From contig JAHFTW010000001.1 of assembly GCA_023269235.1 (NCBI GenBank), forward strand, positions 43,548-107,547: a DNA stretch of 64,000 bases, in the 5' to 3' direction. Under the pieces are notes generated by a model, which saw nothing but the letters and a program-made list of their open reading frames with translations, was not told the DNA's origin and did not search any database. Below are positions 39,817 through 64,000 of this stretch, piece by piece. Numbering within the stretch: position 1 is the first letter of the stretch; each line of letters opens with the position of its first letter. The position numbers and the translations under genes were made by a program. Source of the DNA: Thermoplasmata archaeon (GTDB lineage: Archaea > Thermoplasmatota > E2 > JACPAO01 > JAHFTW01).

Positions 39817-40833
39817 TCAAAGACCCTTGAGCACCGATGCGACGCCCGCAGGGACCTCGCCGGCGACTAGGTAGGCCGCGCGCTTGGCGATGGGGTCGGT
39901 CGCCTCGCAGCCGATGGCGCAGACCAGCGGGTTGCCCTCGATGGCCTCCAGGAAGTCGAGGGCGCCGCGCACGCCCACCGTGACGAGGAGCCGCGGCGCG
40001 ACGTGGTGGTCGTGGACGCCCACGACGTTGCCCTCGTCCTTGGCGAGGCCGCGCTCGACGATGCCGACGGTGACGCCGAAGACGGCGTCGAGGCGCTGGG
40101 CGAGCTGGCGCGCGAGGTCCAGCTCGGCGGCGCTCTGGATGCGGGCGCCAGCGACGACGACGCGGTCGGCCGTCTCCAGCGTCGGCGTGGGCGCCGGTTT
40201 GTGGCCGAGCACCTCGATGGGCGCGAGACGGCCGGCCTCGACCGAGAGGTCGTGGACGCGCACCGTCGCGTCCGGCGTCTCCAAGGGGGCGCGGAACAGG
40301 CCGCGCTGGACGGAGACGAACTGCGGCAGGACCTGCAGGGCGCTCACGACCTGGAAGCGCGCCTGGCCGCCGGACTCGTGGGTGACGACGGCCTTGCGCT
40401 CGCTCGTGTCCATCTCGACCTTGCTGGCGCCGGTGGCAAAGCCGACGCCGAGGCGGTTGGCGGCGTACGCGGTGACGGCGTCGCCGGTGCGGCTCTGGAA
40501 GACGAGGACCAGCTCGGGCTTGCGTTTGCGGACGACCTGCTCCAGGATGCGCGCGGTGTGGTCGATGGGGGCGTAGTCGGGCGCCGCGACGCGGTACACG
40601 GTGTCGATGGGGTAGCGCTTGAGTTCGGCGGTGGCGGCGTCGAGGCTGGAGCCGATGAGCAGCACCTCGACCCGGCAGCCCAGTTCGTCGGCGAGGAAAC
40701 GCGCGCGGCTGACGAGGGCGAGCGTCTCGGGGTACACGCCGGTCTTGGTCGCGCGGCCAAGGACGAGGATGTTTCGCCAGTCATTGCCGCGCACGTCCTC
40801 CAGGTTCGCGGCGGGGCGCGGCGCATCCGCCAT
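39817..40833 (-). CDS. etfA: Electron transfer flavoprotein alpha subunit
   Basis: N-terminal alpha/beta domain and a C-terminal FAD-binding region (VGVHDHHVAPRLLVTVGVRGALDF...AIGCEATDPIAKRA). ATG at 40833 verified in sequence. Confidence 0.85.
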   Translation of the reverse strand: MADAPRPAANLEDVRGNDWRNILVLGRATKTGVYPETLALVSRARFLADELGCRVEVLLIGSSLDAATAELKRYPIDTVYRVAAPDYAPIDHTARILEQVVRKRKPELVLVFQSRTGDAVTAYAANRLGVGFATGASKVEMDTSERKAVVTHESGGQARFQVVSALQVLPQFVSVQRGLFRAPLETPDATVRVHDLSVEAGRLAPIEVLGHKPAPTPTLETADRVVVAGARIQSAAELDLARQLAQRLDAVFGVTVGIVERGLAKDEGNVVGVHDHHVAPRLLVTVGVRGALDFLEAIEGNPLVCAIGCEATDPIAKRAAYLVAGEVPAGVASVLKGL

Positions 40834-40868
40834 CGTGGCGTAGAGGCCGGCGAGGCCGAGGTCGTCGC

Positions 40869-41645
40869 TCACGGGGAGCCTCCCTTCTCCGCGATGAGGC
40901 TGCGGCTGCGCAGGCGACGGACGAGGGTCGCGCCGTCCACGCTCTCCAGGCTGCGCGACTCCTGCGGGACGTTCTCGATGCGCTGGCGCTTCGTGAGGGC
41001 CTTCTGCACAGTGTAGTTGTCGGCCTTGACACGCAGGATGCCCTTGACGCGGTGGGCGTCGTGGATGCCCCACGCCGTCGGGTGGCTGGGCTCCAGGTCG
41101 CCGACCAGCAGGACGGAGGGGCGCGGGACGCGCAGGTCGTAGTCGCCGAAGAGGGACTGGTACGCGATGCGCAGGCCGACGCCATCCACGGCGACGCGGC
41201 TCACCCCGACGAGGCAGGGAAGCTCCAGCTGGCCCGCGAGGGCGGCGAGCGTCCCGGTGAACCCGGCGAACTCGCTGCGGGCGGGGCCGATGACGGCGTC
41301 GAAGGGCCCCATCTGCTTGTACACCTCCGCGATGGTGGTCGCGCGCGTCGAGGCGTCGGACTCGCTCTTCTCGGCGCCCTCGACGAGGACGCCCTGGTCG
41401 GCGCCGTGGGCCAGCGCCTCGCGCAGGACCTCCTCGCCGCCGCCTTTGTCCACGTGGACGACGACGAGCTCGGCGCCCTCGGCGGCGAGCTGCTTGGCGA
41501 GGGCGAGCGCCTGCGCCGACTCGCGGCTCAGGATGCGCTCGACGCCCTCGGTGTCCACGAGGCCGTTGCGCTTGAGGCGCACCTTGCCATGGAAGGCGCC
41601 CGTGACGGGGACGAGGACGCGCAGACGCGCCCCGGATGGAGGCAT
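40869..41645 (-). CDS. etfB: Electron transfer flavoprotein beta subunit
   Basis: ETF beta fold (RVLVPVTGAFHGKVRL...VYKQMGPFDAVIGPARSEFAGFTG). Start overlaps the ACAD stop by 1 nt. Confidence 0.85.
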   Translation of the reverse strand: MPPSGARLRVLVPVTGAFHGKVRLKRNGLVDTEGVERILSRESAQALALAKQLAAEGAELVVVHVDKGGGEEVLREALAHGADQGVLVEGAEKSESDASTRATTIAEVYKQMGPFDAVIGPARSEFAGFTGTLAALAGQLELPCLVGVSRVAVDGVGLRIAYQSLFGDYDLRVPRPSVLLVGDLEPSHPTAWGIHDAHRVKGILRVKADNYTVQKALTKRQRIENVPQESRSLESVDGATLVRRLRSRSLIAEKGGSP

Positions 41646-42856
41646 CAGGCACCTTCCTGGAGCAATTCGCGCGCAATAATGAGGCGCTGGACCTCGTTGG
41701 TCCCTTCGTAGATCTCGGTGATGACCTGGTCGCGGAAGGAGCGGTCGATGCGGTACTTCATCTTCAGGCCGTCCCCACCGAAAATCTGGATCGCGCGCTC
41801 GCCGGCGCGGCCGGTCATCTCGCTGCAGTGAATCTTGACGGCGGCCGCGGCGCGGCTCACCTTCTCGCGCAGCGCGCGGGGGACCGGCTCGCCGTGCGCG
41901 ATCTTCTCGTAGTACTCGTTCGTCAGCGTCGCCGCGTGGTAGACGGCGTACTCGGCGAGATGGATGTCGGTCGCCATGTCGGCGAGCATCCACTGGATGG
42001 ACTGGTTCTTCCCGAGCGGCTTGCCGTACCGCTCGCGGTCCTTGGCGCGCCGCACGCAGTCGTCGAGGAGCCGCTTGCAGGCGCCGAGGCACGCCGCGGC
42101 GAGGCCGACGCGGCCGCCATCGAGGGCGGTGAGCGCGGCGATGAAGCCCTCGCCGACCTTCCCGAGCACGTTCTGCTTCGGGACGCGGCAGTTGTCGAAG
42201 ATGAGCTCTGCCGTGTTGCTCTGCCGGATGCCCATCTTGTCCTCGATGGTCCCGACCGTGAAGCCGGGCGTCCCCTTGGAGACGATGAACGCCGTCACGC
42301 CGCCGTGGGCGCCCAGCGTCTCGTCGGTGACCGCGAAGACGACGACGGTGTCGGCGAAGTTGCCGTTCGAGCACCAGATCTTCGTGCCGGAGATGAGCCA
42401 GTCGTCGCCGTCGCGCACCGCCTTCGTCTTGATGCTGGCTGCGTCCGAGCCCGCCGTCGGCTCCGTGAGCGCGAACGCGGCCAGATGCCGTCCTTCGGCG
42501 ATGGGCCGCACGAAGCGCTCGCGCTGGTCGTCGTTGCCGAACAGGTAGATGGGCATCAGGCCGATGCCGCTGTGGGCGCCGAAGATGGTGCCCAGGCTGG
42601 AGTCCACCGCGGAGATCTCCTCCATGAGGATGCAGTACTCCACCTCGCCCATGCCGGCGCCGCCCAGCGCGCGCGGAATGCCGATGCCGAACCAGCCCTG
42701 GTGCTGCATCCGCTTCACCAGCTCCAGCGGGGAGTCGCCGCCGTGGCCTGACCAGTCGTCGTCCGGCAGTCCGGGTTCGATCTGGCTGCGCATGAACTGG
42801 CGCGCCGAGCGCTTGAGGAGGCGCTGCTCTGGGGTGAAGGCGAACTCGAAGGCCAT
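41645..42856 (-). CDS. Acyl-CoA dehydrogenase
   Basis: Canonical ACAD N-terminal, middle and C-terminal domains (GSDAASIKT, and a C-terminal ...YEGTNEVQRL tail). Confidence 0.95.
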   Translation of the reverse strand: MAFEFAFTPEQRLLKRSARQFMRSQIEPGLPDDDWSGHGGDSPLELVKRMQHQGWFGIGIPRALGGAGMGEVEYCILMEEISAVDSSLGTIFGAHSGIGLMPIYLFGNDDQRERFVRPIAEGRHLAAFALTEPTAGSDAASIKTKAVRDGDDWLISGTKIWCSNGNFADTVVVFAVTDETLGAHGGVTAFIVSKGTPGFTVGTIEDKMGIRQSNTAELIFDNCRVPKQNVLGKVGEGFIAALTALDGGRVGLAAACLGACKRLLDDCVRRAKDRERYGKPLGKNQSIQWMLADMATDIHLAEYAVYHAATLTNEYYEKIAHGEPVPRALREKVSRAAAAVKIHCSEMTGRAGERAIQIFGGDGLKMKYRIDRSFRDQVITEIYEGTNEVQRLIIARELLQEGA

Positions 42857-44684: not shown

Positions 44685-44994
44685 GGGTTCACTGCCGGTC
44701 GGACCGGCATCCGGACAAGCCCACCGGGCCGGTTAATAGTTCCTCCAAGAGTCATCCCGGCAGGCTTGCCCAGTTCAATACCCATTGACAGGTTCATGGC
44801 TGACTTGAAAATGTCCAGGTGAAGCCACGGGGTACCCGATTCGAAACGTACCGCTTCGTCTGTCGCTTTCTCAATCCGCGTCCGACGATTTTTTCTCCTG
44901 GACGGCCGGGTCAGGCCAGCGTCGTTTTCCCTCGGGTCTGCTCTTAAGCTTGTGGGCCAACGGGTATGAACCTCGGAGTCGCGACCTAGGGACC

Positions 44995-45846
44995 ATGGCC
45001 GCGCAACCGACCAGTCCCTCTGCCTATCCTGGCGCCATTCGCATCCCCACGCCCAAATCCAGCAGTTCCTGGACCGCGCCGTGGCGCGCCGGCCAGGCGC
45101 CGACCCGCCCCGGGGTAGCCCCCGTCCGGCCGCTTTCTGCGGTCCCTGCCCCCGCGCCCGGTCCGGCCAAGGCCCCCCGGGCCCCTCCCCCCATGCGCGC
45201 GGCCGCCCATGCAGCCCCCCCTCGTCCTGCGGCGCCGACCCGCCCGGCCCCTGCCCGCGGCCCGGCCCCCACGGACGCCAAGCCCCGCAAGGGCCTCGGC
45301 GCCTGGATCCGCCTCCACAAGGTCGCCTCGATTGCCATCGTGAGCCTCCTCCTCGTCGCCGGCCTCGTCGCGGCCGTCGTCTCCATCCGCCAGGACGTCA
45401 CGGCGACGACCAGCTCCAAGGCCCCGCTTGTCATCTTCCAGAACGGCGCCGACTACGCCAGCATCAACACCGCCGGCTTCGCCACCTTGACGCTTGGCAC
45501 CTCCGCCACCAGCGCCACGTTGGCGCTCTCGGGGATTCCGGGCGCGGCCCAGACCAGCCTCGGCAACATCCTCAAGCTCAACAACCAGGACGCCACCCAC
45601 CCCGAGTCCGTCACCCTCGGGCGCAGCACGACCCTCAACGCCGCCATCACCAGCTTTGTCGTGACGGTCAAGAATGGCGCGAGCACGCTCGCCACCTGGG
45701 ATGCAGTCTCCGCAGCGTCCTCGTCCAGCTTCACGCTCCCCGTCTCCACAGTCCTTGACATCACCATCGTGCTCGTGGTCACGGACGGCACCGCGGCCGG
45801 CAGCCTTGGCAGCTTCGGCATGCAGTTTACCCTGGCCCCCACGTGA
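44995..45846 (+). CDS. Paralog 1 of tandem Ser/Thr/Ala-rich surface proteins: Pro/Ala-rich cytoplasmic tail, single TM anchor, beta-rich ectodomain
   Basis: ~110-aa P/A/R-rich N-terminal tail, TM IAIVSLLLVAGLVAAVV, then ...VIFQNGADY...SFGMQFTLAPT. The longer ORF starts at 44950. Confidence 0.55.
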   Translation: MAAQPTSPSAYPGAIRIPTPKSSSSWTAPWRAGQAPTRPGVAPVRPLSAVPAPAPGPAKAPRAPPPMRAAAHAAPPRPAAPTRPAPARGPAPTDAKPRKGLGAWIRLHKVASIAIVSLLLVAGLVAAVVSIRQDVTATTSSKAPLVIFQNGADYASINTAGFATLTLGTSATSATLALSGIPGAAQTSLGNILKLNNQDATHPESVTLGRSTTLNAAITSFVVTVKNGASTLATWDAVSAASSSSFTLPVSTVLDITIVLVVTDGTAAGSLGSFGMQFTLAPT

Positions 45847-45856
45847 GGCGACGACA

Positions 45857-46510
45857 ATGACCGACCCGCCATCCAACACCATTTTGCGTGCATCACCCGC
45901 CCAAAAGTCGCCCCGGCACCGCGGCGTTGCCGGCCGCCTGTTCAAGGCCGGTCGCTTCAGCCTCAGCGTGTGGATGAAGCTCCACCGCACCCTGCTGGCA
46001 TCCCTGGCCGGCCTCCTCGCCGCGGCCATCCTCGTCGTGGCCGTCGTGAGCTTCCGCATGGACGTCACCTCGAACCCCGCCTCAAAGGCTCCCGACGTCG
46101 CGTTCCAGAACGGCGCCGACTACACGGGCATCAACGTCGCGGGCTTCGCGACCGTGACGCTCGGCGCGTCCGGCACCAGCGCCACCTTGGCCCTCTCCGG
46201 CATCGCCGGCGTCGCGCAGACGAGCCTCGCGAACATCCTGAAGCTCTCCGACGGCAGCGCGACCGTGCCCTACACGGTGAGCCTCGCCCGCAGCGCGGCC
46301 CCGAACGCCGCCATCACGAGCTTCCAGGTCACCGTCAAGAACGGCGCGAGCACCCTGCTGACCTGGGACGCGGTCGCCTCCGCGACCTCGTCCAGCTTCA
46401 CGCTGCCGGTCTCCACCAGCCTGGACATCAGCATCCTCGTCGTCGTCGCCGACGGCACCGCCGCCGGAAGCCTCGGCAGCTTCGCGATGCAGTTCACTCT
46501 GGCTCCGTGA
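45857..46510 (+). CDS. Paralog 2 of tandem Ser/Thr/Ala-rich surface proteins
   Basis: gagg RBS. TM LASLAGLLAAAILVVAVV, then VAFQNGADY...SFAMQFTLAP. ~65% identical to paralog 1 in the ectodomain. Confidence 0.6.
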   Translation: MTDPPSNTILRASPAQKSPRHRGVAGRLFKAGRFSLSVWMKLHRTLLASLAGLLAAAILVVAVVSFRMDVTSNPASKAPDVAFQNGADYTGINVAGFATVTLGASGTSATLALSGIAGVAQTSLANILKLSDGSATVPYTVSLARSAAPNAAITSFQVTVKNGASTLLTWDAVASATSSSFTLPVSTSLDISILVVVADGTAAGSLGSFAMQFTLAP

Positions 46511-46518
46511 GGGTCGTC

Positions 46519-47043
46519 ATGCTGCGCGGCGGCCGAGTCGTCCTTGCCACCTTCGTGGCGATGGCGCTCGCCGTTGCCGCCACGACCACCCACCGCCAGG
46601 ACCTCACGACGACGCCCGCCGCGAAGGCGCCTCCCGTGACCCTGGCGGCGGGGACGAGCGGCTCGACCTCGCTTGGCTCGAGCGGCACCAGCGCCACGAC
46701 CTCCGTCGGCATTGGCCTCACCACGCTCACCGTGCTCAAGGTCCACAAGGTCTCGGACAACTGGGATGTCAAAGTGAGCCTCGGCTCCGCGTCGGGGTTC
46801 GGGGTCCTTGAGTCCGCCACAGTCGCCCTCGTGGGGGGCTCCGCCCAGAACCAGGTCGTCATCCTGCTTGGCACTGTAACCCAAAGCTCGGGCAGCACCG
46901 TCGCGCTGACAGGATCCGACCTCACGATCACCGTCGCCGGCACGGTCGCCGTCACCGGCACCTTGGCCCTCAACGTGGTGCTGGTGCCCCAGGGCGGCAC
47001 GGCCCCCGTCATGACCTACTCCTACACGTTGACCCTGACCTGA
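46519..47043 (+). CDS. Paralog 3 of tandem Ser/Thr/Ala-rich surface proteins (more divergent)
   Basis: gaggg RBS, signal/anchor VVLATFVAMALAVAATTT, then a similar T/S/A/G/V-rich beta-type composition. Confidence 0.55.
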   Translation: MLRGGRVVLATFVAMALAVAATTTHRQDLTTTPAAKAPPVTLAAGTSGSTSLGSSGTSATTSVGIGLTTLTVLKVHKVSDNWDVKVSLGSASGFGVLESATVALVGGSAQNQVVILLGTVTQSSGSTVALTGSDLTITVAGTVAVTGTLALNVVLVPQGGTAPVMTYSYTLTLT

Positions 47044-47103: not shown

Positions 47104-47379
47104 ATGAGTCCAGCCAAACCCGCCAAGAAGACCGCCGCGAAGGCCGCGGCGCCCGCCAAGAAGGCCGCCCCCAAGGCCGCCGCGAAGAAGCCGGTCACGC
47201 ACACCCCACCCAGCAAGAAGGTCGTCGCGAAGGCGCAGCATGACCACCAGGACCCCCGCGTCGGCGCCGACCACGGGCATGCCCAGGCCGGGCACGCGAA
47301 GCACCAGCACGAGGGCATCCCCCCGGCTCCGCGCTTCAACAAGGTCATCAACTGGTTCCGCCGCGGCAGCGGACGATAG
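47104..47379 (+). CDS. Small Lys/Ala/Pro-rich basic protein with His-rich C-terminal tail
   Basis: AKKTAAKAAAPAKKAAPKAAAKKP (histone H1/Hc1-like), then HDHQD..HGHAQAGHAKHQHEG. Possible RBS upstream. A T-rich stem-loop terminator candidate follows. Confidence 0.4.
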   Translation: MSPAKPAKKTAAKAAAPAKKAAPKAAAKKPVTHTPPSKKVVAKAQHDHQDPRVGADHGHAQAGHAKHQHEGIPPAPRFNKVINWFRRGSGR

Positions 47380-50586: not shown

Positions 50587-52488
50587 TCAGTTTAGGAAGA
50601 GGGCGAAGCAGATGTAGCTCAGCGCCACCATGACGAAGGCGTGGCGGAGGCCAAGGATGGCCTTGCCCGACCCCATCTGCCCCGCTACGATGCCGTCGCC
50701 CAGCCCCTGCAGGACGGCGGCGAGCAGGTAGAACAGCTGGTAGTCCTGGAGGCTCAGCGTCTGGCCCTTGAGCGCCCCGAACGAGGCCAGCTGGGTCTGG
50801 TTCGCGGCGGCCTGGCTCGCGGCGACAAGCTGTGGCACGAACTGCGCGTACATGATCGAGGCCACGCCGAGGAACACGAGGAAGGTCACGTAGATGACGA
50901 CGGTGTAGAGGCTCATTGAGAGGCGGCGCTCGGTCTCGAGCGTCTTGATCTCGCGCGCGTCGCGGGCGGCCGCGATGAGCACCTCGGTCGTGGAGCCGCC
51001 GGAGCGGTCCGCCTGCAAGATGAGCGTCACCGCGCGCTGGACGAGCGGCGTGCGCACCCGCTCCGCGAAGCGCTGCAGGACCTCCTGGAAGCCGACGTTC
51101 CAGGTCACCTGGTCCGCCATGCGCCGCACCTCGGGCGTGAGCGGCCCGTAGTCGCCGCGCGCCGCCACCGCGATGGCGCTCGCGAGCGTGAGGCCGCCTT
51201 TGTGGCTCGAGGCGATGTCGCGCAGGAAATCCGGGAAGCGCTCCTCAAGCTGCCGGATGCGCTTCTGCTCGCGCGCCGCGTAGAAGCCGTACGGCCCCAG
51301 GGCGACCAGCAGGCCGAGGCAGAAGAAGTGGATCCAGGCGTTGGGTGGCATCCCGAGGAGGCTGTTGCCCGAGAACAGGATGAACGCGGGGACCATCAGA
51401 AGCACCGCGCCGACGGCCGAGCCGCCGAGGAGGAACGCTTCGCGCAGCTTCTTCGCGTCCGTCTTGACCTGGAAGAGCGGCGGCTCCAGCGGCTCCGAGC
51501 GGGCAAGGCGGAAGGCGGCGGCCAGGCTCAGGCCCATCGCCAGGAGAAGGAACCCGAAGACGCCCAGGATGACTGGGTCCTTCGCGACGTCGGCGAAGAC
51601 GCCCACCACCCCAAGGCCGAGGAGGATGAAGAGCAAGAACACCAGCATCAGCAGCGCGAAGGCCGCCAGGATGGGCAGGAAGATGGCGCGGTTTCGGTTG
51701 ATGGCCGGGCCGCCCGCCATGCCGCGGTCGCTGCCGAGGATGGCGCCGATGCTGGGCAGGCTGCGGCTGCGGATGAGCGCAAAGGAGGCCGCCGCACCCG
51801 CGCCGAGGGCGAGGAGCGGGACGTCGGCGTCCTGCGCCCCGCCGCGAAGGCTGAGCCACCCGACGAGGAGCGCGAGGACCGCCACCAGGCTGAGCCCGAG
51901 GAACGTGAGCAACGTGCGCGCCTCGCTGCCCGGGCGCGGAGGGCCTTGGAGCGTGGTCCAGTGCGCGTAGCCGCCGACGCCGAGCAGGATCGCGAGCATC
52001 GCGAGCGCGCCCTTGCCAAGGATCTCGTACGCGAACGGCAGGTGCAGGACCCCGTACCGGGCCGGGAGCGCGAAGCCAAGGACGACGACGGAGAGGATGA
52101 GGAGGACATGCAGCATCAGCGTGGAGATGCGCAACCGCTGGGCGACCTCGAGCTGCCGTGTCCGTTCGCCGGCGTCTTTCGCGCCGTAACGGCGCAACCG
52201 GTCGACGGGGTGTCCCAGGACGGAGCCGACCGCCACCAGGAGGAGACCGGCCGCGAGCAGCAGGCCCATCACCTGGGGCCAGGCGCCTCCGACGGGGACG
52301 GTGAGGCCCGCCGCGCCGACGATGGAGAGGGCGGTGCCGAGGGCTCCGCAAATGAGGGTGGCCAGCTCCAGGCCGGGGTGGGGCTGGGTGGGAGCGGTGG
52401 GAGGGGACACCTCGAGGTCGGGACGGCTCTCAAAGGCTGGCAGGCGCAGGAGCTTCCCGGCGGGGCCGTCGTCGCGTGGGTCCGCCAT
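50587..52488 (-). CDS. TadC/FlaJ-like polytopic membrane protein (T2SS-F domain) of a type IV pilus-like system, with extended N-terminal membrane region
   Basis: T2SSF-like segment FPDFLRDIASSHKGGLTLASAIAVAA. Multiple TM helices. Adjacent to the TadB-like protein and the ATPase. Confidence 0.7.
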   Translation of the reverse strand: MADPRDDGPAGKLLRLPAFESRPDLEVSPPTAPTQPHPGLELATLICGALGTALSIVGAAGLTVPVGGAWPQVMGLLLAAGLLLVAVGSVLGHPVDRLRRYGAKDAGERTRQLEVAQRLRISTLMLHVLLILSVVVLGFALPARYGVLHLPFAYEILGKGALAMLAILLGVGGYAHWTTLQGPPRPGSEARTLLTFLGLSLVAVLALLVGWLSLRGGAQDADVPLLALGAGAAASFALIRSRSLPSIGAILGSDRGMAGGPAINRNRAIFLPILAAFALLMLVFLLFILLGLGVVGVFADVAKDPVILGVFGFLLLAMGLSLAAAFRLARSEPLEPPLFQVKTDAKKLREAFLLGGSAVGAVLLMVPAFILFSGNSLLGMPPNAWIHFFCLGLLVALGPYGFYAAREQKRIRQLEERFPDFLRDIASSHKGGLTLASAIAVAARGDYGPLTPEVRRMADQVTWNVGFQEVLQRFAERVRTPLVQRAVTLILQADRSGGSTTEVLIAAARDAREIKTLETERRLSMSLYTVVIYVTFLVFLGVASIMYAQFVPQLVAASQAAANQTQLASFGALKGQTLSLQDYQLFYLLAAVLQGLGDGIVAGQMGSGKAILGLRHAFVMVALSYICFALFLN

Positions 52489-52489
52489 G

Positions 52490-53374
52490 CTAGGCCTCCG
52501 GGGTCATGACCTTGATCGTCCACGCGAAGCCCGCCTGGGCCATCGGGATGAGGACGAAAATCAGGAGGTAGCCGATGAGCAGGTTGTCGCCCCCGGAGCC
52601 GCCAAACGTGGTCATGACGGAGAGGATGACGATGAGGAAGAGCGGCGCGGCGACGACGACGGTGACGAACGCCTCGGCGAGCACGCCCAGCCCTTCGAGG
52701 AACTTGCGCTGTTCCTGGCGGTTGTCAAGGAGGTATTGGTCGGCCTTGTCGGAGAAGTACGTCTTGAGGTCGCCGCCCGAGGTGAGCGCCGTCACGGCGC
52801 CCTGCAGGAAGTCCTGGAACTTCGTGCTGGGGCTGCGGTCAATGGCGCGCGCCAGGGCGCCCATGATGTCCTGGCCCAGGACCCGCAGGTCGCGCACGAT
52901 CCAGGCGCATTCTTGCGCGACCTCGCCATAGAGCGGCTGCGCGGCGAGGCCGGCGAAGAGCTGCTCCGGCGTCGCTCCCGCGGAGGCCATGGTCGAGATG
53001 TAGTTCAGCGCGTACGGCAGCTTGGCGTTGAGGCCCCGGCTGCGGTTGAGGGTGCGCAAGTCGGGAAGGATGATGGCGGAGAGGTACACCATGATGGCGA
53101 GCACCACCGGTGCTGGCACGAGGAAGATGAACAGGCCCGCCGGGATGCTCGCGAGGCCGGTGAGGCTGGCGAGGATTAGGACGAGGACGGGGATGAGAGC
53201 AAGCAGCCCCGCCAGAGCCGCCGTGAGGTAGGCCGAGGCGAGGTACACCTCGGGCCGCAGCAGGATGTGGGCGCGCTCGAGCGCGAGGCGCAGGTGGGCG
53301 TTCTGGCTCGCCGCGCGTGTGGCGAGCGGCCCGAACCAGCGGTACCCGAGGCGCTCGAGGCTGCGCAGCGCCAT
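52490..53374 (-). CDS. TadB-like membrane protein (T2SS-F domain)
   Basis: Soluble helical segment between TM hairpins (LPYALNYISTMASAGATPEQLF). Start chosen at MALRSLERLGY, 1 nt after the ATPase stop. The longer ORF (to 53449) would overlap the ATPase by 74 nt. Confidence 0.6.
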   Translation of the reverse strand: MALRSLERLGYRWFGPLATRAASQNAHLRLALERAHILLRPEVYLASAYLTAALAGLLALIPVLVLILASLTGLASIPAGLFIFLVPAPVVLAIMVYLSAIILPDLRTLNRSRGLNAKLPYALNYISTMASAGATPEQLFAGLAAQPLYGEVAQECAWIVRDLRVLGQDIMGALARAIDRSPSTKFQDFLQGAVTALTSGGDLKTYFSDKADQYLLDNRQEQRKFLEGLGVLAEAFVTVVVAAPLFLIVILSVMTTFGGSGGDNLLIGYLLIFVLIPMAQAGFAWTIKVMTPEA

Positions 53375-53375
53375 G

Positions 53376-55370
53376 TCATTCCCTCGCGATGCGGGCCATG
53401 AACCCCTTCGGGTCGCGGTAGTAGGAGGTGACGTTGCGCGCCACGTCACTGTAATGGCGCACGCCCTTGGCCATCATCCATTCGAGCGCCTTGGTGCGGT
53501 TGGCCCACTCGGCTTGCAGGGTCGCTTCGGAGAGGTTGCGCCGCTCCGCGATCTGCTCGAGGAGGTAGGAGCGCCCGAGGAACGCATGCTTCCCGGTCTT
53601 GACGTCCCACTCGAAGACGGTGTTCGTCAGGAGCTCCCGGGTGTCGGGGTCGAAGCCGACGATCTCGGTGACGTTGAGGATGCGGCGCGCCAGCTTGTCG
53701 TCCACGCGGACCTGGGCCTGGATGGCCATCAGGCTGAGCGTCTGGAGCATGATGCGCGGGATGTTGATGGGTGCGTTCTCGAGGCGGTACACGGCGCTCT
53801 GGACCGAGTCGGCGTGCATCGTCGAGTACACGGCGTGTCCGGTCGCCATCGCCTGGAACAAGGTGAGGGCCTCAGGGCCGCGCACCTCGCCCACGATAAG
53901 GTACTCCGGGCGCTGGCGCAGCGCCGCCTCCAGGAGCTTGTACATGTCGATGGTCCCGGCGGGCTTGCCGGACGCGGTCTCGGCGCCGAAGCCGCTGCGG
54001 GTGAGGCCGGCGATCCAGTTCTCGTGGCTCAAGTTGATCTCGCGCGTGTCCTCGATGCTGACGATCTTCTTCTCGGGCGGGATGAACTGGCTCACGGCGT
54101 TGAGCGTCGTGGTCTTCCCCGAGGCCGTGCCGCCCGCGAGGAGGAACGAGGCGCCCATCTCCATGACGAACCAGAAGTAGGCGGCCATCTGCGGGCTGAT
54201 GGTGCCGTACCGAATCAAGTCGGGGGGCGTCAGCGGGTCGGCGCGGAACTTGCGGATGGTGAAGCTGCTGCCGCGCGTCGTGACCTCGCGGCTCAAGGTG
54301 GCCTGCAGGCGCGAGCCGTCCGGCAGGGTCGCGTCGAGCAACGGGTCGGCAACGCTGATGTGCTTGCCGCTGCGCTGGGCCAGGCGGACGACGAAGGCGT
54401 CCAGGTCGGCGTCGGAAGGGAAGACGACGGTCGTCCGGAGCGACTCGTACTTGCGGTGGAACAGGTAGATCGGGATGGTCGGGCCGTCGCACGAGATGTC
54501 CTCGATCATGCCATCGCGCAGGAGGACGTCCACGGGACCGAAGCCGAGGAAGTCGCGCACGAGATGGTACTCGACGCGCTGCAGGCCGACGGGGTCGAGG
54601 CGGATGGCGTGGTCGAGGACCGCCTGGCGCGCCGCCGTGAGCAGCACGTCGGACCAGTCGGCGCCGCTGCGCTGCTGGATGGCCTTGCGGCCGTCCAGGG
54701 TCCGGATGAGCGTCTCGCGCAGGAACTCCAGGACCGCCGTCTCGTCATTGCCCAACGTCGGCTCGATGACCTGGTAGAGATAGCTGCGGTCCGTTTCGTT
54801 GAGGAGGATGCGCACCCAGGCGCGGTCGGGGACGACGGGGGTCAGCTCGACTTCGCGGTGGCCCGTCGGGACGGGCGGAATGGAGGTGACCGGTCCGCCC
54901 TTCGCAGGCGCCTTCGCGACCGGCATGGGGGGAAGCGGGCTGAGCAACGAGGCCGGTTTGGGCACCGGTCGGGGCGGCGGAACGGGAACGCCGGCCGACG
55001 GCGGAGGCGGGGGTTGAACGAGAGGGGATGGAGGACGGGATGACGCGGCGCGAGGCCGGACGCCGGTCGTCGCGGCCGCCGCGGGCAAGGTGCCGTGGGC
55101 AAGGGCGGTCGCGAGGTGCGTGTCCGTGAACTCGAGCAGCTCCTCGACAGGTGGCGTTGACTGGGGGGGCGGCGGAGGAATTGCGTTGAGTCCAGGCGCG
55201 CGCGGGGTCGGCCGGCGCTCGGCCATGCCGGTGGGGACCTGGGCGGGGGCGGACCGCGGCCCCGCAAAGGGCGTGGGCGACGCGCGCGCGGGGGGCGACG
55301 GCTTCGCTTTCTTGGCGGGCGCCTTGGACGATTTTGCCGCGGTCTTGGCCCGGGGTGGTGAGGGGGTCAT
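53376..55370 (-). CDS. FlaI/TadA/CpaF-family secretion ATPase with ~200-aa Pro/Ala-rich low-complexity N-terminal extension
   Basis: Walker A LAGGTASGKTT, Asp and His boxes (ATGHAVYSTMHAD). N-terminus rich in P/A/K (PPPPQSTPP, PPPPPSAGVPVPPPRPVPKP). Confidence 0.9.
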   Translation of the reverse strand: MTPSPPRAKTAAKSSKAPAKKAKPSPPARASPTPFAGPRSAPAQVPTGMAERRPTPRAPGLNAIPPPPPQSTPPVEELLEFTDTHLATALAHGTLPAAAATTGVRPRAASSRPPSPLVQPPPPPSAGVPVPPPRPVPKPASLLSPLPPMPVAKAPAKGGPVTSIPPVPTGHREVELTPVVPDRAWVRILLNETDRSYLYQVIEPTLGNDETAVLEFLRETLIRTLDGRKAIQQRSGADWSDVLLTAARQAVLDHAIRLDPVGLQRVEYHLVRDFLGFGPVDVLLRDGMIEDISCDGPTIPIYLFHRKYESLRTTVVFPSDADLDAFVVRLAQRSGKHISVADPLLDATLPDGSRLQATLSREVTTRGSSFTIRKFRADPLTPPDLIRYGTISPQMAAYFWFVMEMGASFLLAGGTASGKTTTLNAVSQFIPPEKKIVSIEDTREINLSHENWIAGLTRSGFGAETASGKPAGTIDMYKLLEAALRQRPEYLIVGEVRGPEALTLFQAMATGHAVYSTMHADSVQSAVYRLENAPINIPRIMLQTLSLMAIQAQVRVDDKLARRILNVTEIVGFDPDTRELLTNTVFEWDVKTGKHAFLGRSYLLEQIAERRNLSEATLQAEWANRTKALEWMMAKGVRHYSDVARNVTSYYRDPKGFMARIARE

Positions 55371-55453
55371 GGAGGTCCAGTCCTTCAGGGTGAGACGGTC
55401 GTGTGGCAGGGATTGTCTTGAGGCGCTTAACCGTTTCCGGAGGAGCCGGAGCC

Positions 55454-56497
55454 TCAGCTGAACGTGAAGAGGACCACGAGGTCCTGGAAGTCGGCCGCCG
55501 ACGAGTTGAGGTCGTCCGTGAACTCGTAGAGGAGGATGACCTGGTTCCGGTCGAGCACCATGGTCTGCGTGTAGGTGTTCACGTACGGCTGCATGAACGA
55601 GGCCAGGAGCGCCTGGTTGCCGAAGGCGGGCCGGTTGGGGGCGGCATCGCCTTGCTTCAGGGTCAAGACATGAGGCGTGGACGCGATCGAGGTGTAGGTC
55701 TTATCGAACGAGCAGCTGGCGAGCCTGGCCCGTCCTTCGACGCCGAGGACGGAGCCGGCGGGCACTTGGCCCAAGTTGAGGCTCTGGCCACCGTTCGGGT
55801 TCACGGGAGCGCCGCCAAAAAGGGAAGCGTAGCTGGACCCGCCGTTTTGGGTGTAGCGCGCCGTCACGTCCATTTGCGGCCCGGACGCGCCGCAGGTGAT
55901 CTGGGCACCCACGATGGCCAGGTTCACGTTCCAGGTGCCGCCGGACACCGTGATGCCGCCCGAACCGGCGCCGATGAGGAAGGCCGGCGACTGCGAACGC
56001 AAGGCCTCGACCTGGAAAACGTACTCGCGGTTGGAGTACACGGTCACCTGGGCCTCGCGCCCGGCAGCGGAGTAGCAGCCGGCAACGGGGCCGATGATGC
56101 AGAGCCGGGTCCCCACCGTCCAGGCGGGGCCGCCAATCTGGGCCGAGAAGGTGGAGAGGGGCACCGCGGTCTGGACGCCATCCAGCGTGATGAACAACGT
56201 CGAGCCCGCGACGGGGATGTCGTCCGGCCCGCTTGGCTCCAGGTAGTAGCCTTCGCCCGTGAAGGTGGCCTTTCCGCCGGACTCCACGGGGTCGTGCGGT
56301 TGCGTGCGCAGCACCTGCGTCATGACGACGAAAAGCGCCGCGAGGACCACGACGATGCCGATCAGCAGGATGCCGCCAATGGGCCCTGTGGCTGCGCCCC
56401 GGTCGGTGGCGAAGCGTCGGCGGGGGGCGCGGGGGGCAGCCTCCATGACCCTACTGTGCTGAGGGGGCTGCCTTTCGGGCTTTCGGGAAAGGTTCAT
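55454..56497 (-). CDS. Archaeal type IV pilin-like protein (class III signal peptide), 347 aa
   Basis: DRG|AATGPIGGILLIGIVVVLAALFVV fits the archaeal prepilin [KR][GA]-hydrophobic pattern and Pilin_N. An alternative ATG at 56446 gives a shorter leader. Confidence 0.65.
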   Translation of the reverse strand: MNLSRKPERQPPQHSRVMEAAPRAPRRRFATDRGAATGPIGGILLIGIVVVLAALFVVMTQVLRTQPHDPVESGGKATFTGEGYYLEPSGPDDIPVAGSTLFITLDGVQTAVPLSTFSAQIGGPAWTVGTRLCIIGPVAGCYSAAGREAQVTVYSNREYVFQVEALRSQSPAFLIGAGSGGITVSGGTWNVNLAIVGAQITCGASGPQMDVTARYTQNGGSSYASLFGGAPVNPNGGQSLNLGQVPAGSVLGVEGRARLASCSFDKTYTSIASTPHVLTLKQGDAAPNRPAFGNQALLASFMQPYVNTYTQTMVLDRNQVILLYEFTDDLNSSAADFQDLVVLFTFS

Positions 56498-56513
56498 CCG
56501 TCTCGCCTCGGGC

Positions 56514-58034
56514 CTATCCTGCCGGCTGCAAGGCGATGCCCACCGTGCCCTTGCGCAGGGTCACGAGGACATCCTTCGTGGCGTCGGTGGGGGACGAGCA
56601 GGGCCCGAAGAAGTTCAGGGTCGCCGAGCCCGGCGTGCTGCCCACGACCGGCGTGGTGCTGATCGTGTACTTCGCGGCGGAGGTCGTCGTGTCGAGGCAG
56701 GGAGCAAGCGACGGGGCGGCGGCGGACGAGAGGCCGGCGAGCTTCATCCGCTCGTCCCAGAACGCGGCCCACGCGGCCGGGTGGTTGGTCGTCAGCGTGA
56801 AGGTGATGTCCTGCGCGGTGGCCTGGAGGGCGGTGCCGGCGCCCGAGGGCGAGGCGACGATGGTGGCGGCGCGCGCGCCGGTCACGGCCGCGGAGCCGCC
56901 CGAGAGGGCCGGGAAGCTCCACGCGATGCCGGCCTGGCTCTGCGTGGTGCCCACGGAGAAGCTGGGCGGCGACACCATCGCGTCGCCGTCGGTCTGCGTC
57001 AGGAAGACGGCGCCGTACTCGAATCCGTACGTCTGCACGGGCAGGCGCTGGTTGTTGACGAGCACGCTCAGAACGCCGGTCGGGGTGAAGTCGTTGAAGC
57101 TGGTGTAGCTGAGGCCGAGGCCGCCCTTGCGCACCGTGCCGTAGGCGGTGCCTTGGTCGTACACGAAGGCGACCTGGCCGGCGGTGTTGCCCTGTGCGTA
57201 CTGCGCCTTGAGCGGGAACGCCGAGGCGGGGACCGCCGCCAGGACGGCGCCGAACTCCCCTTCCGTCAGGGGATCAAAATAGAAGTAGGCGGGCAAGAAG
57301 GCCGGCACGGTGGGCACGATGGCTTGGCTCCGCGTGCGGTAGGGAGTCGCCGAGCAGGTGGCGGCGGCCGGGTTCTGCGCGGCGTAAAGCTGCGCCTCGA
57401 TCATTTTGTTCGCGCCCGTCACGCCGCCCGTCACGCCGGCGAAGACGACCTTGACCTCGCCCTGGCAGTTGTTGCTGCCGTCGGTCAGCGTGAAGTCGAG
57501 CGTCTGGGTCCCGGAGGGGAGCGAATCCGGGTTGGGGACACGCATGCGCAAGTGCGCGACGCCGAGGATCCCGGTGACCTGCGAGCCGTCCCAGGTCCAG
57601 TCCTCGTTGAGGCTGTAGAGTGGGCTGCCCCCGGCCTGCTGCAGCGCGATGGGGCGGGCGGTGGTCATCGTGAGGCCTGCGTTGGACGAGGAAGGCGTGT
57701 AGGTGACCGACCCCGGCAGGAGCTGCGAGCCGAAGAAGCTGAAGCCCTGCGCCCGGGTCAGGCTGATGGACTCCGAGAGGGCGACGGTGGTCTGGTTGTT
57801 GGCGATGCGATCCAGGTCGGATTTGAGCTGGCCCACGACGCTGCCGGTCTCGATGCCGGTGTCGCGTTCGCGCTGCTTGTCCCAGATGGGGACGAACTTG
57901 ACCTGGATGACCGTGAGGGTCACGAGCAGCAGGCCGAACATCAAGATGGCCCCGAGGACGGTCGAGACGGCGTGGTCATCGCTGCGTGGGCGCGGCATGG
58001 GCCGGAAGCCTGGGAAGCGGGGGCGGGCCGTCAT
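56514..58034 (-). CDS. Large archaeal pilin-like/adhesin-like protein with Pilin_N-type N-terminus, 506 aa
   Basis: ...SDDHAVSTVLGAILMFGLLLVTLTVI is homologous to the N-terminal helix of the next gene. The rest is beta-rich and T/S/G-rich. Start overlaps the upstream stop (ATGA). Confidence 0.6.
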   Translation of the reverse strand: MTARPRFPGFRPMPRPRSDDHAVSTVLGAILMFGLLLVTLTVIQVKFVPIWDKQRERDTGIETGSVVGQLKSDLDRIANNQTTVALSESISLTRAQGFSFFGSQLLPGSVTYTPSSSNAGLTMTTARPIALQQAGGSPLYSLNEDWTWDGSQVTGILGVAHLRMRVPNPDSLPSGTQTLDFTLTDGSNNCQGEVKVVFAGVTGGVTGANKMIEAQLYAAQNPAAATCSATPYRTRSQAIVPTVPAFLPAYFYFDPLTEGEFGAVLAAVPASAFPLKAQYAQGNTAGQVAFVYDQGTAYGTVRKGGLGLSYTSFNDFTPTGVLSVLVNNQRLPVQTYGFEYGAVFLTQTDGDAMVSPPSFSVGTTQSQAGIAWSFPALSGGSAAVTGARAATIVASPSGAGTALQATAQDITFTLTTNHPAAWAAFWDERMKLAGLSSAAAPSLAPCLDTTTSAAKYTISTTPVVGSTPGSATLNFFGPCSSPTDATKDVLVTLRKGTVGIALQPAG

Positions 58035-60307
58035 GTAGTGCTGATCCTCGCGTAGTCGAGAAGGACGGTGGTGGTCACGGTGCTCGCCGGGTTGACGTCA
58101 CGGATGCGCACCTTGGGCGCCCCGTTGTTGTACTCTGTGGGCAGCAACGTGAGCTGGCAAGTGTAGGCGACGGCGGTGACGGAGACCGAGTTGAGCTGGC
58201 TGGGGCAGACCCGCCAGGCCCCCGTGCTGGGGTTGAACACGCCGACGATGAACACGTCGTTGGCGACAATCGGGGAGATGTGGTAGCCCAGGTCCAAGGT
58301 CTGCGCCCCGGTCGTCGGGCTGGAGTTCGGCACGTTGGCGAACGTGAGGACCTGGTTCATGCCGCGGCCCGCGCCGCCGGTCACGGCGTAGGAGACCTTG
58401 ACGAAGAGCTGGTCCACGTTGGCGTTGGCGCTTGGGCGGGCGGTGAGCGTGAAGTGAATGGCGAGAGCCTGGATGTCGGCCGTCGTCCACGAGCGGTCCG
58501 CGGTGACGTCCAGCGTCGTCACGTCGTCCACGGTGTTTGAGCTCAGGGTCGCCCCGGTCAGGGTCGTTGGACCGGTCGCGCCCCCCACGGCGTAGTCCAT
58601 CGTGATGGTCGGGGAGGTCCCGGTGCTGGACTTGCGGGCTTCGAAGCCGATGAGGACCTGCGTGATGCCGCCGGCGCCGGCAGGGGGCGTCGTCCAGATT
58701 CCGTCGACGTAGAGGTTGGCGTTGACGCTGCTCAGGGTGGCGAACTGGTCGTCGCTCAACAAGGCGCACGCCTGGTTCACGTACGTCGGGCAGCTCGTCT
58801 CGGAGACCGAGTTGCTTCCCGTGTTGGACGTGCCGGGCTGGATGGCGAAGGTGACGGGCACTTCCGTCATGCTCGCTTCCGTGCCGCCCGCCGCCGTGGC
58901 GCCCACCGCGTTGGTGATGGTTCCTGCCGTAGCCACGATGCCGCCCGTCGTGATGTAGGTGGGCGAGACGATGTCCACTAGGTCGGACTGGGCGGCGCTC
59001 GGCCCGGTGTTCCCGGCGGCGTCCTTGAGGTTGAGGAACTGGTACTGCAAGGTGCGTCCGGCCTGCAGGTACCACGTCTGGCTAGGAACGACCCCCGTCC
59101 ATTGGTGGTTGGCGGGAGCGCCGACGCGGCTCAAGGCGCCACCAGCGACATACGCGGGGTTGGTGCCGTCATTGAGACGGTAGGCCAGCGTCGGCGTCGC
59201 CGTCGTGTCGTCCACGCCCCAGCAGTTGTCCACGATCGTTCCCGTCACGGTGACGGTGCCGGCCGGCGTGGTGCTCACCAGGTTGGCCGGGCTCGCCGCT
59301 TGCCACGTGACACTCGGCGGCGTCGTGTCGCCGGTGCAGTCCGCGTCAATGACGTCGCTCTGCGTCGAACTGGTCCCGGCGTTGGCGCGCAGGTCCTTGT
59401 AGGACGCAATGTAGTACTCGAGGACCTTGCCGGACTGGGCGGACCAGGTCTGGCTCGGGACGGTGCCGGTCCAGACGGAGAGACCTTGGGTCGTCATCGC
59501 GCCGGCGTCCGCGTACGCCGGAGCCGAGAGGCCACGCAGGCGCCAGAAGAGGTGCGGCGGGAACGCGGTGTCCACGCCCGCGCAGTTGTCCAGCAGCGTG
59601 ACAGAGACCGTGATGGCGCCCGAGGAGAGGCTCGTGACATCGGAGGGGCTTTGCACCCACGGGCCGGCACTGGGCGCGGTCGTGTCGAAGGGGCAGGCCG
59701 CGCCCGAGGAGACTTGGCCGGGCACCAGCGTGGCGGTGGCGAGGAGCTGGCTGCCGGCGGAGCCGCCGGTCTGGCGGGAGACCACGTTGAGCAGCACGTT
59801 GTCGGTGGACTGCAGGGTGAGCGTAAGCGTCCACGTCTGCCCGATGGAGAGACGGCCGTTCGGGAAGCCGAGCGCGGTCCCCGTGATGCTCACCGGGGCG
59901 CCGATGTTGATCTTGTACAGGATGGTCGTCTGCGACGCCTCGATGGCCTCGCCGCCGACGTTGCGGACGATGAGCTGCTCGTCGCCGTTGCCCCAGGCGG
60001 CGTTGCCGGGGCTCACGGAGATGGCCAGGTTCGCCTGCGGGAAATCCACGGGGCCCTTGAACGAGAAGACCAGGGCGCCCATGACCGTCGCGAGCGTGAC
60101 GGTGATGGCCACCAGGAGGATGGAGCCGACGACGTCGGAGACCGCACCGCGGTCGCCCCGAAGATGAAGCCGGGAAGGCGAAGAACGGCGGGACATCATG
60201 GTCATGGGCAGGCTCCTGCCGACCGCCCCGTCCGTGGGCCCTCGAGGGTCTTGAACCCGTCGGCAGAAGGCAGAAGACCCCTTCGCGCGGCGGGCCGCAT
60301 GGTTCAC
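58031..60307 (-). CDS. Large archaeal pilin-like/adhesin-like protein with class III signal peptide, 758 aa
   Basis: RGDRG|AVSDVVGSILLVAITVTLATV prepilin-like N-terminus, followed by a long Thr/Ser/Gly-rich beta domain. Start overlaps the receiver stop. An alternative start at 60205 (MTMM) is possible. Confidence 0.6.
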   Translation of the reverse strand: MNHAARRAKGSSAFCRRVQDPRGPTDGAVGRSLPMTMMSRRSSPSRLHLRGDRGAVSDVVGSILLVAITVTLATVMGALVFSFKGPVDFPQANLAISVSPGNAAWGNGDEQLIVRNVGGEAIEASQTTILYKINIGAPVSITGTALGFPNGRLSIGQTWTLTLTLQSTDNVLLNVVSRQTGGSAGSQLLATATLVPGQVSSGAACPFDTTAPSAGPWVQSPSDVTSLSSGAITVSVTLLDNCAGVDTAFPPHLFWRLRGLSAPAYADAGAMTTQGLSVWTGTVPSQTWSAQSGKVLEYYIASYKDLRANAGTSSTQSDVIDADCTGDTTPPSVTWQAASPANLVSTTPAGTVTVTGTIVDNCWGVDDTTATPTLAYRLNDGTNPAYVAGGALSRVGAPANHQWTGVVPSQTWYLQAGRTLQYQFLNLKDAAGNTGPSAAQSDLVDIVSPTYITTGGIVATAGTITNAVGATAAGGTEASMTEVPVTFAIQPGTSNTGSNSVSETSCPTYVNQACALLSDDQFATLSSVNANLYVDGIWTTPPAGAGGITQVLIGFEARKSSTGTSPTITMDYAVGGATGPTTLTGATLSSNTVDDVTTLDVTADRSWTTADIQALAIHFTLTARPSANANVDQLFVKVSYAVTGGAGRGMNQVLTFANVPNSSPTTGAQTLDLGYHISPIVANDVFIVGVFNPSTGAWRVCPSQLNSVSVTAVAYTCQLTLLPTEYNNGAPKVRIRDVNPASTVTTTVLLDYARISTT

Positions 60308-60741
60308 CGGATGCGGCCGAAGCGGCCGGACTCGGTCTCCATCTCGTTGAGGATCTTGCGGACCGCCTCGGTGCGGGCGGGCTTGGGCAGGTAGGCGAAC
60401 GCGCCCTGGCGGATTCCCTTGACCACCATCGGGTCGGAGGCCGGGAGGCCGGTCACGAGGATGACGCGCGTGCTCGGGTTGCGGGCGAGGATCTTCGCCA
60501 TGACGTTGAGGCCAGAGTCGGCGGTGTCGTCGAGCACCATGTCAAGGAACACGGCGTCGATGGGCGCCTTGTCGAACTGCTTGAGGGCCTCCACCGCGTC
60601 GGCCGCCTCAAGGATCTGGGGCGGCGTGCGGGTGGCCTGCTTGATGGCCGAGGCGAGAGTGAGCCGGATCGTGGGGGAATCGTCCACGAGGAGATAACGG
60701 GCCACAAGGACACAAGGGGGGAGTGATACATGAAGCCGCAT
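60304..60741 (-). CDS. Stand-alone CheY-like response-regulator receiver domain
   Basis: LLVDDSPTIRL...DAVFLDMVL...ILVTG...K (phospho-acceptor D and conserved K). First gene of the pilus operon. Confidence 0.75.
   Translation of the reverse strand: MRLHVSLPPCVLVARYLLVDDSPTIRLTLASAIKQATRTPPQILEAADAVEALKQFDKAPIDAVFLDMVLDDTADSGLNVMAKILARNPSTRVILVTGLPASDPMVVKGIRQGAFAYLPKPARTEAVRKILNEMETESGRFGRIR

Positions 60742-61323: not shown

Positions 61324-64000
<2,677 letters not shown>

Follow-up and report, generated by a model that had tools for sequence, protein, structure and literature searches.

Three tandem genes, here called P1, P2 and P3, occur in a 64,000-nucleotide stretch of a Thermoplasmata archaeon genome (contig JAHFTW010000001.1, positions 43,548 to 107,547 of the forward strand; hereafter the window). 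We consider their products to be probable subunits of a donor-strand-assembled extracellular fibre of the TasA superfamily, on the side of the superfamily that includes the archaeal thread (Saci_0406) and the bundling pilus (AbpA). P1 and P2 belong to one protein family (family A) and P3 to a second (family B). Homology, fold, conservation of the gene pair, a cleavage-type site and purifying selection are established here. A reading of this DNA made from the sequence alone (the sequence-only reading) had listed TasA or bundling-pilin-like donor-strand subunits as its first candidate role, and structure and profile comparisons both favour that candidate. The proteins are rich in Ala, Ser, Thr, Gly and Val and free of Cys, and, as that reading had stated, none has a recognisable domain: Pfam and NCBIfam scans of P1, P2 and P3 gave no match even at E ≤ 10.

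Direct searches of the Protein Data Bank (PDB) sequences with the family A and family B profiles were negative. A HMMER search of 1.84 billion cluster representatives with the mature family A profile, from which the signal had been removed, matched only 72 clusters at E ≤ 1e-3, and most of the distant ones are proteins of 165–195 amino acids with short signal peptides. The profile reaches a thread-like subgroup, A8, at E values of 9e-7 to 3e-4. A8 has the pattern ..AYAG↓VIVIYPVTGTVS..PPVVFEEGSN (the arrow marks the cleavage-type site), and one cluster member is named from a Desulfurococcales archaeon. Aligned profile to profile with hhalign, family A and A8 match with 98.5% probability (E 2e-15, 142 columns), and family B matches A8 at E 8.7e-5. 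The A8 profile in turn gave a single match among all PDB sequences, 7pnb_A (Saci_0406), over its full length (E 8.7e-6), and a broader profile, A7, also ranked Saci_0406 first (E 0.0026). Because family A is joined to A8 and A8 to 7pnb_A, family A is, as judged by these profiles, related to the thread subunit by distant sequence homology through an intermediate and is not a structural look-alike only. Pfam scans of 48 distant family A relatives returned no meaningful domain, with stray PKD-like matches in up to three. Some distant members of the superfamily (P0074, P0085 and P0116; 335–340 amino acids) have two tandem β domains and many N-x-T sequons, unlike P1–P3.

The structural comparison points to the same proteins. 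An AlphaFold2 model of P2, built from a 36-sequence alignment (mean predicted local distance difference test score, pLDDT, 76.7), contains a long N-terminal helix, a low-confidence linker and a ten-strand β domain; the model of P3 has a pLDDT of 72.7. The top structural matches of both models are 7pnb_A and 7ueg_A (AbpA), and in a Foldseek search of the PDB with the P2 model these two scored E 2e-5 and 4.8e-5, followed by a next match at 8e-4. Two models and two search methods thus concur on archaeal donor-strand pilins, predicting a thread/AbpA-type β-sandwich or jelly-roll for the head domain.

The homology also allows the N-terminal hydrophobic segments to be compared with a processed protein. 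Mature Saci_0406 begins at Asp24 after cleavage by signal peptidase I, and the strand at its N-terminus acts as donor (PMC9715654). This cut (A23↓D24) is placed 16 residues ahead of P40 in the sequence APPMYF, which corresponds to a conserved AP[PDL]VxF strand in families A, B and A8 in a gap-free homologous alignment. A site compliant with the −3/−1 rule is found 16 residues before the conserved Pro in 7 of 7 A8 sequences, in all four members of family B that the motif search could anchor and in nearly all of family A; rows that the search mis-anchored or missed were checked by hand only. This offset is the only universal one, and the next commonest, 21, fits 27 family A sequences. The −1 position is an invariant Ala column (Ala127 of P1 and Ala62 of P2), the −3 position is small or aliphatic, and the hydrophobic and cleavage region up to the site comprises 18 residues in P1 and P2 and 15 in P3. 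The 16-residue tail that would follow the cut ([VL][VL]xIRQDVTTxPSAKA) is the best-conserved segment between families A and B. The sequence-only reading had described the three proteins as membrane-anchored. A 22-residue uncharged stretch argues for a signal anchor, but less strongly once the homologous cleavage position is mapped. Since the invariant −1 Ala, with a small or aliphatic −3 residue, falls exactly at the position of thread cleavage, anchoring is doubtful, and the hydrophobic helices of P1 and P2 are more likely to belong to signal peptides that are cleaved off and have an N-terminal region of unusual length. Export by twin-arginine translocation (Tat) was considered and rejected: RRGL precedes the helix in several homologues, but P1 has RK and P2 has RF at this position, and charged residues separate the motif from the hydrophobic stretch.

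P1 and P2 are 65% identical over 206 amino acids (BLASTP, E 7e-75), and the sequence blocks previously quoted as shared between them are indeed present in both. By BLASTP, P3 resembles P1 and P2 only in the hydrophobic segment and in an RQD[VL]T...KAP motif. Compared profile to profile, family A (36 sequences) and family B (9 sequences) match with 98% probability when the signal is kept (E 2.6e-13) and with 97% when it is removed (E 6.8e-11, 130 columns). P3 is therefore best described, on comparison of profiles, as a distant paralogue of P1 and P2 that is homologous over the whole ectodomain, a relationship seen only at this level; the earlier description of the three proteins as paralogues holds in this sense. 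Family B runs about 16 residues past the C-terminus of family A, and the P3 model contains one extra C-terminal strand.

The duplication that gave rise to P1 and P2 is old, and both copies have been kept under purifying selection. Over the ectodomain, synonymous divergence (dS) is 0.71 and non-synonymous divergence (dN) 0.18, a dN/dS of 0.25. A neighbour-joining tree places P1 in one clade with P0003 and P0005, and P2 in another with P0006 and P0002; P0003 and P0006 are themselves in tandem on one contig (L008), followed by a family B gene and then a gene for a small protein, C (below). These observations contradict the proposal of a recent duplication and diversification. A family A gene followed directly by a family B gene was found in every locus examined (L001, L002, a JGI contig, L003, L004 and L008). 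L001 and L002 have the same flanking β-oxidation genes as the window, and L001 also has PRC and CDC48 genes downstream; in L003 the pair lies among quite different neighbours, with a histidine kinase gene directly upstream, and in L004 it occurs without the C gene. A functional link to the β-oxidation genes, the PRC-barrel gene or CDC48 was considered and rejected: the arrangement looks like lineage synteny only, since the A–B pair is also found in another context. About 4 kb downstream of the pair in L003 (6040–6702) is a gene for an Rce1-like CPBP intramembrane protease.

We propose that P1, P2 and P3 would each be exported via Sec and cut after the invariant Ala by the housekeeping signal peptidase I, leaving a β-sandwich head of about 150 amino acids preceded by the 16-residue N-terminal tail. 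The tail would enter the open sheet of a neighbouring subunit, and subunits chained in this way would form a thin filament. Family A, represented by two old paralogues, would be the polymerising subunit; of the two families it is the nearer to the major thread subunit. Family B would be a minor subunit that probably caps or nucleates the filament, as proposed for Saci_0405 and TapA; the extra C-terminal strand of P3 could fill its own groove. The long Pro/Ala/Arg-rich extension of family A, with its GLxAWxRxHK motif, would serve as a lengthened n-region of the signal peptide. Export, cleavage and donor-strand polymerisation are predicted by homology, and the assignment of major and minor roles is more tentative.

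Among the closest known systems is the thread of Sulfolobus acidocaldarius (Saci_0406, PDB 7PNB, arCOG10215), to which family A is linked by the intermediate profile. Saci_0406 has a Sec-type signal and a 16-residue tail before an APP..F strand, as predicted for P1–P3, with a cleavage-type site at the same offset; it too has no Pfam domain, and a structurally similar second subunit, Saci_0405, is encoded alongside it (PMC9715654), as in the A–B pair. Saci_0406 is a protein of the Thermoproteota, however, whereas P1–P3 are from the Thermoplasmatota, their head is about 30 residues shorter, and the thread subunits lack the 30–110 residue N-terminal extension of family A. The fold is shared with AbpA of Pyrobaculum calidifontis (PDB 7UEG), a jelly-roll variant that forms a donor-strand polymer after cleavage by signal peptidase I (PMC9245690), although AbpA has no sequence-level match to P1–P3. 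AbpA loci contain eight genes, including that of the three-domain, TapA-like AbpB, whereas here there is a single-domain paralogue as partner and no other conserved accessory gene. The proposed arrangement also resembles TasA/TapA/SipW of Bacillus subtilis, in which a secreted β-sandwich with an N-terminal donor strand has a minor nucleating partner. TasA is the founding member of the superfamily that holds threads and bundling pili (PMC9245690; bioRxiv 10.64898/2026.01.04.697558). P1–P3 do not match the TasA/camelysin family PF12389 (Peptidase_M73), and no gene for a SipW-type peptidase adjoins the cassette in the window or in its relatives. TafF1 and TafF2 of Natrinema sp. J7-2 have the outline of unprocessed P1 and P2, a transmembrane (TM) helix and a jelly-roll; P1 and P2 carry a conserved signal-peptidase-type site. 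The Tafi pilins are mostly Tat-exported and form a separate structural group, and we do not claim that they are homologous to P1 and P2.

Several observations weigh against a thread-like fibre. The isopeptide-forming Asp of the thread, which occupies its mature N-terminus and is proposed to bond to Asn57, is not conserved at the predicted mature N-terminus, which is Val, Leu or Thr. The predicted mature proteins begin VVSI, VVSF and TTTH, there is no YYY motif, and a conserved Asp or Asn is found 7 residues downstream (RQ[DN]VT). None of P1, P2 or P3 contains an N-x-S/T sequon, unlike the heavily glycosylated thread with its five glycans per subunit, and one sequon, at QNVT, is present in some homologues. 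A glycan coat and an isopeptide bond of the thread type are therefore not expected here, and the sequon search lends no N-glycosylation support to the suggestion that these are glycosylated antigens; N-glycosylated antigens were rejected on this ground. Neither in the window nor in the loci of relatives is the cassette accompanied by a dedicated gene for a signal peptidase or for another assembly function, and both the polymerisation of P1–P3 and the missing strand in their heads are predictions. The 30–110 residues ahead of the hydrophobic segment of family A are far from usual in Sec signal peptides, the segment could well be classed as a signal anchor by standard predictors, and AlphaFold draws one continuous helix (P2 residues 36–70) through the proposed cleavage site.

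These last features suit an arrangement in which P1 and P2 are uncleaved type II membrane proteins, with the N-terminus inside, the disordered Pro/Ala tail in the cytoplasm and the jelly-roll outside, that tether a filament of secreted P3. Only family A has long N-terminal regions (median 44 amino acids) and the positively charged juxtamembrane GLxAWxRxHK motif, the uncharged stretch reaches 21–27 residues when counted to the Arg of RQD, the helix in the P2 model spans 35 residues, and TafF1 and TafF2, TM-helix-plus-jelly-roll proteins, have been proposed to anchor Tafi pili. We nevertheless judge this arrangement unlikely. In families A and B alike, the position of the invariant −1 Ala is homologous to that at which thread cleavage is proven, and 18 residues up to that site is a typical length for a signal peptide. 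Family A is also closer than family B to the major thread subunit (by the A8 comparisons above) and the extra C-terminal strand of family B suits a self-complemented cap and not a polymerising subunit. A related arrangement, which we also regard as unlikely, takes the conserved GLxAWxRxHK motif and the disordered cytoplasmic tail of 30–110 residues as signs that family A is either a membrane-tethered donor-strand subunit that physically couples an extracellular fibre or surface lattice to the cytoplasm across the membrane or a pilin gated by its extended signal peptide. Extended signal peptides of bacterial autotransporters offer a precedent for gating of export or assembly, and neither a tethered nor a gated arrangement is described in the TasA-superfamily literature cited here.

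P1–P3 might also descend from the superfamily and share only its fold, as monomeric or loosely associated surface β-sandwich proteins (adhesins, S-layer-associated or other envelope proteins) that form no donor-strand filaments. Their polymerisation is only predicted, the family has few members, all from a handful of Thermoplasmatota genomes, genes for assembly or regulation are absent from the locus, and many proteins that form no filaments have jelly-roll or Ig-like folds. The best-conserved segment between families A and B, however, is the 16-residue tail positioned like the thread donor strand, which would be hard to explain for monomers; the pairing of a major-like with a minor-like paralogue mirrors known donor-strand systems; and, according to the Tafi paper, the TasA-superfamily proteins CanA and Hyper2 self-assemble into filaments without chaperone or catalyst (PMC12337348). 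Resemblance in fold alone is consequently quite improbable. A complete archaeal type IV pilus-like locus 3.5 kb away, and the single N-terminal hydrophobic helix in each of P1, P2 and P3, raise the question of whether these are type IV pilins that keep their helix and are assembled by the pilus machinery encoded at 50.6–60.3 kb. This is close to refuted. P1, P2 and P3 have no Pilin_N match, whereas the three neighbouring pilins (55.4–60.3 kb) do; no class III leader motif is apparent by eye; in family A charged residues (R, H, K) separate the only K/R-G from the hydrophobic stretch; the head folds match donor-strand pilins; and no pilus locus adjoins the cassette in L001–L004. The association of the cassette with the nearby pilus locus is thus not conserved, and that locus has its own pilins.

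The donor-strand subunits proposed here would extend the known range of such fibres. TasA, AbpX, AbpA, threads, cannulae and Tafi constitute one TasA superfamily, within which the thread, AbpA and CanA families are predominantly found in Thermoproteota (bioRxiv 10.64898/2026.01.04.697558), and the Tafi paper of 2025 found no homologues of bundling-pilus or thread pilins outside the Thermoproteota (PMC12337348). The present family comprises 36 clusters at 90% identity from a few Thermoplasmatota metagenome-assembled genomes (MAGs), and among the GTDB genome representatives a scan recovered just three loci, each in a MAG of this phylum. P1–P3 most likely represent a new, divergent Thermoplasmatota branch of the TasA/thread/archaeal bundling pilus superfamily, marked by a lengthened signal peptide and a minimal cassette of two families, whose polymerisation is predicted from its relatives. 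If so, thread-like donor-strand fibres extend to uncultured, high-GC Thermoplasmatota, encoded by a small, defined set of genes for major-like and minor-like subunits. For a lineage whose surface structures are not described in the literature cited here, they would be candidates for a fibre in adhesion or biofilms, and they would offer a natural example of a long, conserved extension at the N-terminus of a pilin signal peptide.

The proteins of the window, which has a guanine-plus-cytosine (GC) content of about 70%, and their closest database relatives are from Thermoplasmatota/Thermoplasmata MAGs. P1, P2 and P3 are genuine, co-directional and tightly spaced genes, as the sequence-only reading had concluded from three tandem open reading frames (ORFs) on the + strand, two of them with a GAGG ribosome-binding site. 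GC at the third codon position is 0.87–0.92 in their frames, GAGG lies 8 nt ahead of the P2 start (45845–45848) and 6 nt ahead of the P3 start (46509–46512), and the intergenic gaps are 10 nt (P1–P2) and 8 nt (P2–P3). Because of these properties the ORFs are real genes and almost certainly one transcription unit. Their coordinates and those of the features discussed below are collected in the table.

Table. Features of the P1–P3 cassette and of the neighbouring pilus locus (positions are those of the window; arrows mark predicted cuts)
Feature	Position	Strand	Description
Upstream block	44941–44964	+	CTCTTAAGCTTGTGGGCCAACGGG; putative promoter of the P1-P2-P3(-C) unit; aligns with the region upstream of the L001 family A gene
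P1	44995–45846	+	Family A pre-protein, 283 aa (amino acids)
P1, parts			Residues 1–109, Pro/Ala/Arg-rich extension ending GLGAWIRLHK; 110–127, hydrophobic and cleavage region; 128–283, predicted mature subunit
P1, predicted cut			LVAA↓VVSIRQDV, after Ala127
P1, candidate donor strand	45376–45423	+	VVSIRQDVTATTSSKA (16 aa); predicted mature N-terminal tail; site offset as in Saci_0406
P2	45857–46510	+	Family A pre-protein, 217 aa
P2, parts			Residues 1–44, N-terminal extension; 45–62, hydrophobic and cleavage region; 63–217, predicted mature subunit
P2, predicted cut			LVVA↓VVSFRMDV, after Ala62
P3	46519–47043	+	Family B pre-protein, 174 aa
P3, parts			Residues 1–21, short, typical Sec-type signal; 22–174, predicted mature subunit
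P3, predicted cut			AVAA↓TTTHRQDL, after residue 21
Protein C	47104–47379	+	91 aa; downstream of P1–P3 in the same orientation; membership of the system uncertain
Type IV pilus-like locus	50587–60307	−	Two T2SSF platform proteins, T2SSE ATPase, three Pilin_N pilin-like proteins
Pilus locus flank	60304–60741	−	Response regulator
Pilus locus flank	61324–63999	+	Cache/HAMP/PAS histidine kinase

The public gene call for P1 starts at ATG 45193 and gives a protein of 217 amino acids. Comparison of the DNA upstream of P1 in the window with that of L001 reveals a common block, CTC(T/A)TAA..TTGTGGG.CAACGGG, about 25–50 nt ahead of the ATG at 44995, and the first six codons from this ATG (ATGGC.GC.CAACC.AC, encoding MAAQPT) are common to P1 and its L001 relative. 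Two further homologues have the N-termini MAAHPT and MAAKPT. A start at 44995 places P1 311 bp from the divergent gene, compared with 205–340 bp in relatives, whereas a start at 45193 would leave 509 bp. Because upstream DNA, N-terminal sequence and spacing agree, the true start is, on this comparative evidence, ATG 44995, as taken in the sequence-only reading, the long tail is real and the public call, corrected here, is too short. The Pro/Ala/Arg-rich tail of about 110 amino acids attributed to P1 in the sequence-only reading is thereby borne out, its length being 109 residues, and protein alignments with shuffling controls give weak support for conservation of its first 66 residues (best z 3.2). 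Low-complexity N-terminal extensions are easily missed by gene callers in a high-GC genome. The homologue P0024, a public call of 193 amino acids from an internal GTG, seems to be shortened as well, as the ORF in L006 runs upstream to MAQLTPRPL.. (L006 ~3785–3920).

Such an extension is a feature of family A and is not specific to P1. The number of residues ahead of the hydrophobic segment has a median of 44 and a range of 3–114 in family A (109 in P1 and 44 in P2), compared with 2–9 in family B. The extension, Pro/Ala/Arg-rich in composition, terminates in the conserved GLxAWxRxHK, a motif found only in family A, and the N-terminal part evolves freely (dN/dS ~1.5 for P1 versus P2). The likeness once noted between the P1 tail and that of the pilus ATPase is probably one of general composition, as other proteins of the window also start with Pro/Ala/Arg-rich sequence.

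The cassette is flanked by divergent β-oxidation genes on one side, the nearest of which encodes a 3-hydroxyacyl-CoA dehydrogenase (− strand, ending at 44684), and by a convergent PRC-barrel gene on the other. The upstream block contains a TATA-like TTAAG about 49 nt ahead of the P1 ATG and is a putative promoter of the unit. In the same intergenic region a near-palindromic conserved motif, TTGACAGGTTCA ... GAAAATGTCCAGGTGAAGC, occupies positions 44783–44825. The motif is also found upstream in L001, L008, L004 and L002 (in L004 as GAACATGTTC) and resembles a transcription-factor operator, perhaps for the fatty-acid genes. Downstream of P3, protein C is very basic, with a Lys/Ala-rich N-terminus, a His-rich middle, a conserved C-terminal NWFRRGSGR and no membrane segment. 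It has nothing meaningful in Pfam or NCBIfam beyond a weak resemblance to the histone H1-like HC2. Protein C is conserved downstream of the A–B pair in those relatives that share the flanking genes, and L003 and L004 lack it.

The three pilin-like proteins of the type IV pilus-like locus have 347, 506 and ~724–758 amino acids and Pilin_N leaders, and one also matches DUF7289. The ATPase has a Pro/Ala/Lys-rich extension ahead of its T2SSE domain, which does not start until about residue 306. Elsewhere in the window, a single ORF of 619 amino acids (39820–41676, − strand) has ETF and ETF_alpha domains in its C-terminal half only. Its N-terminal 300 residues may be a spurious extension, with ETF beta in another frame, or the ORF may reflect a fusion or frameshift; relatives have two separate ETF genes (~256 and ~350 amino acids) at this position.

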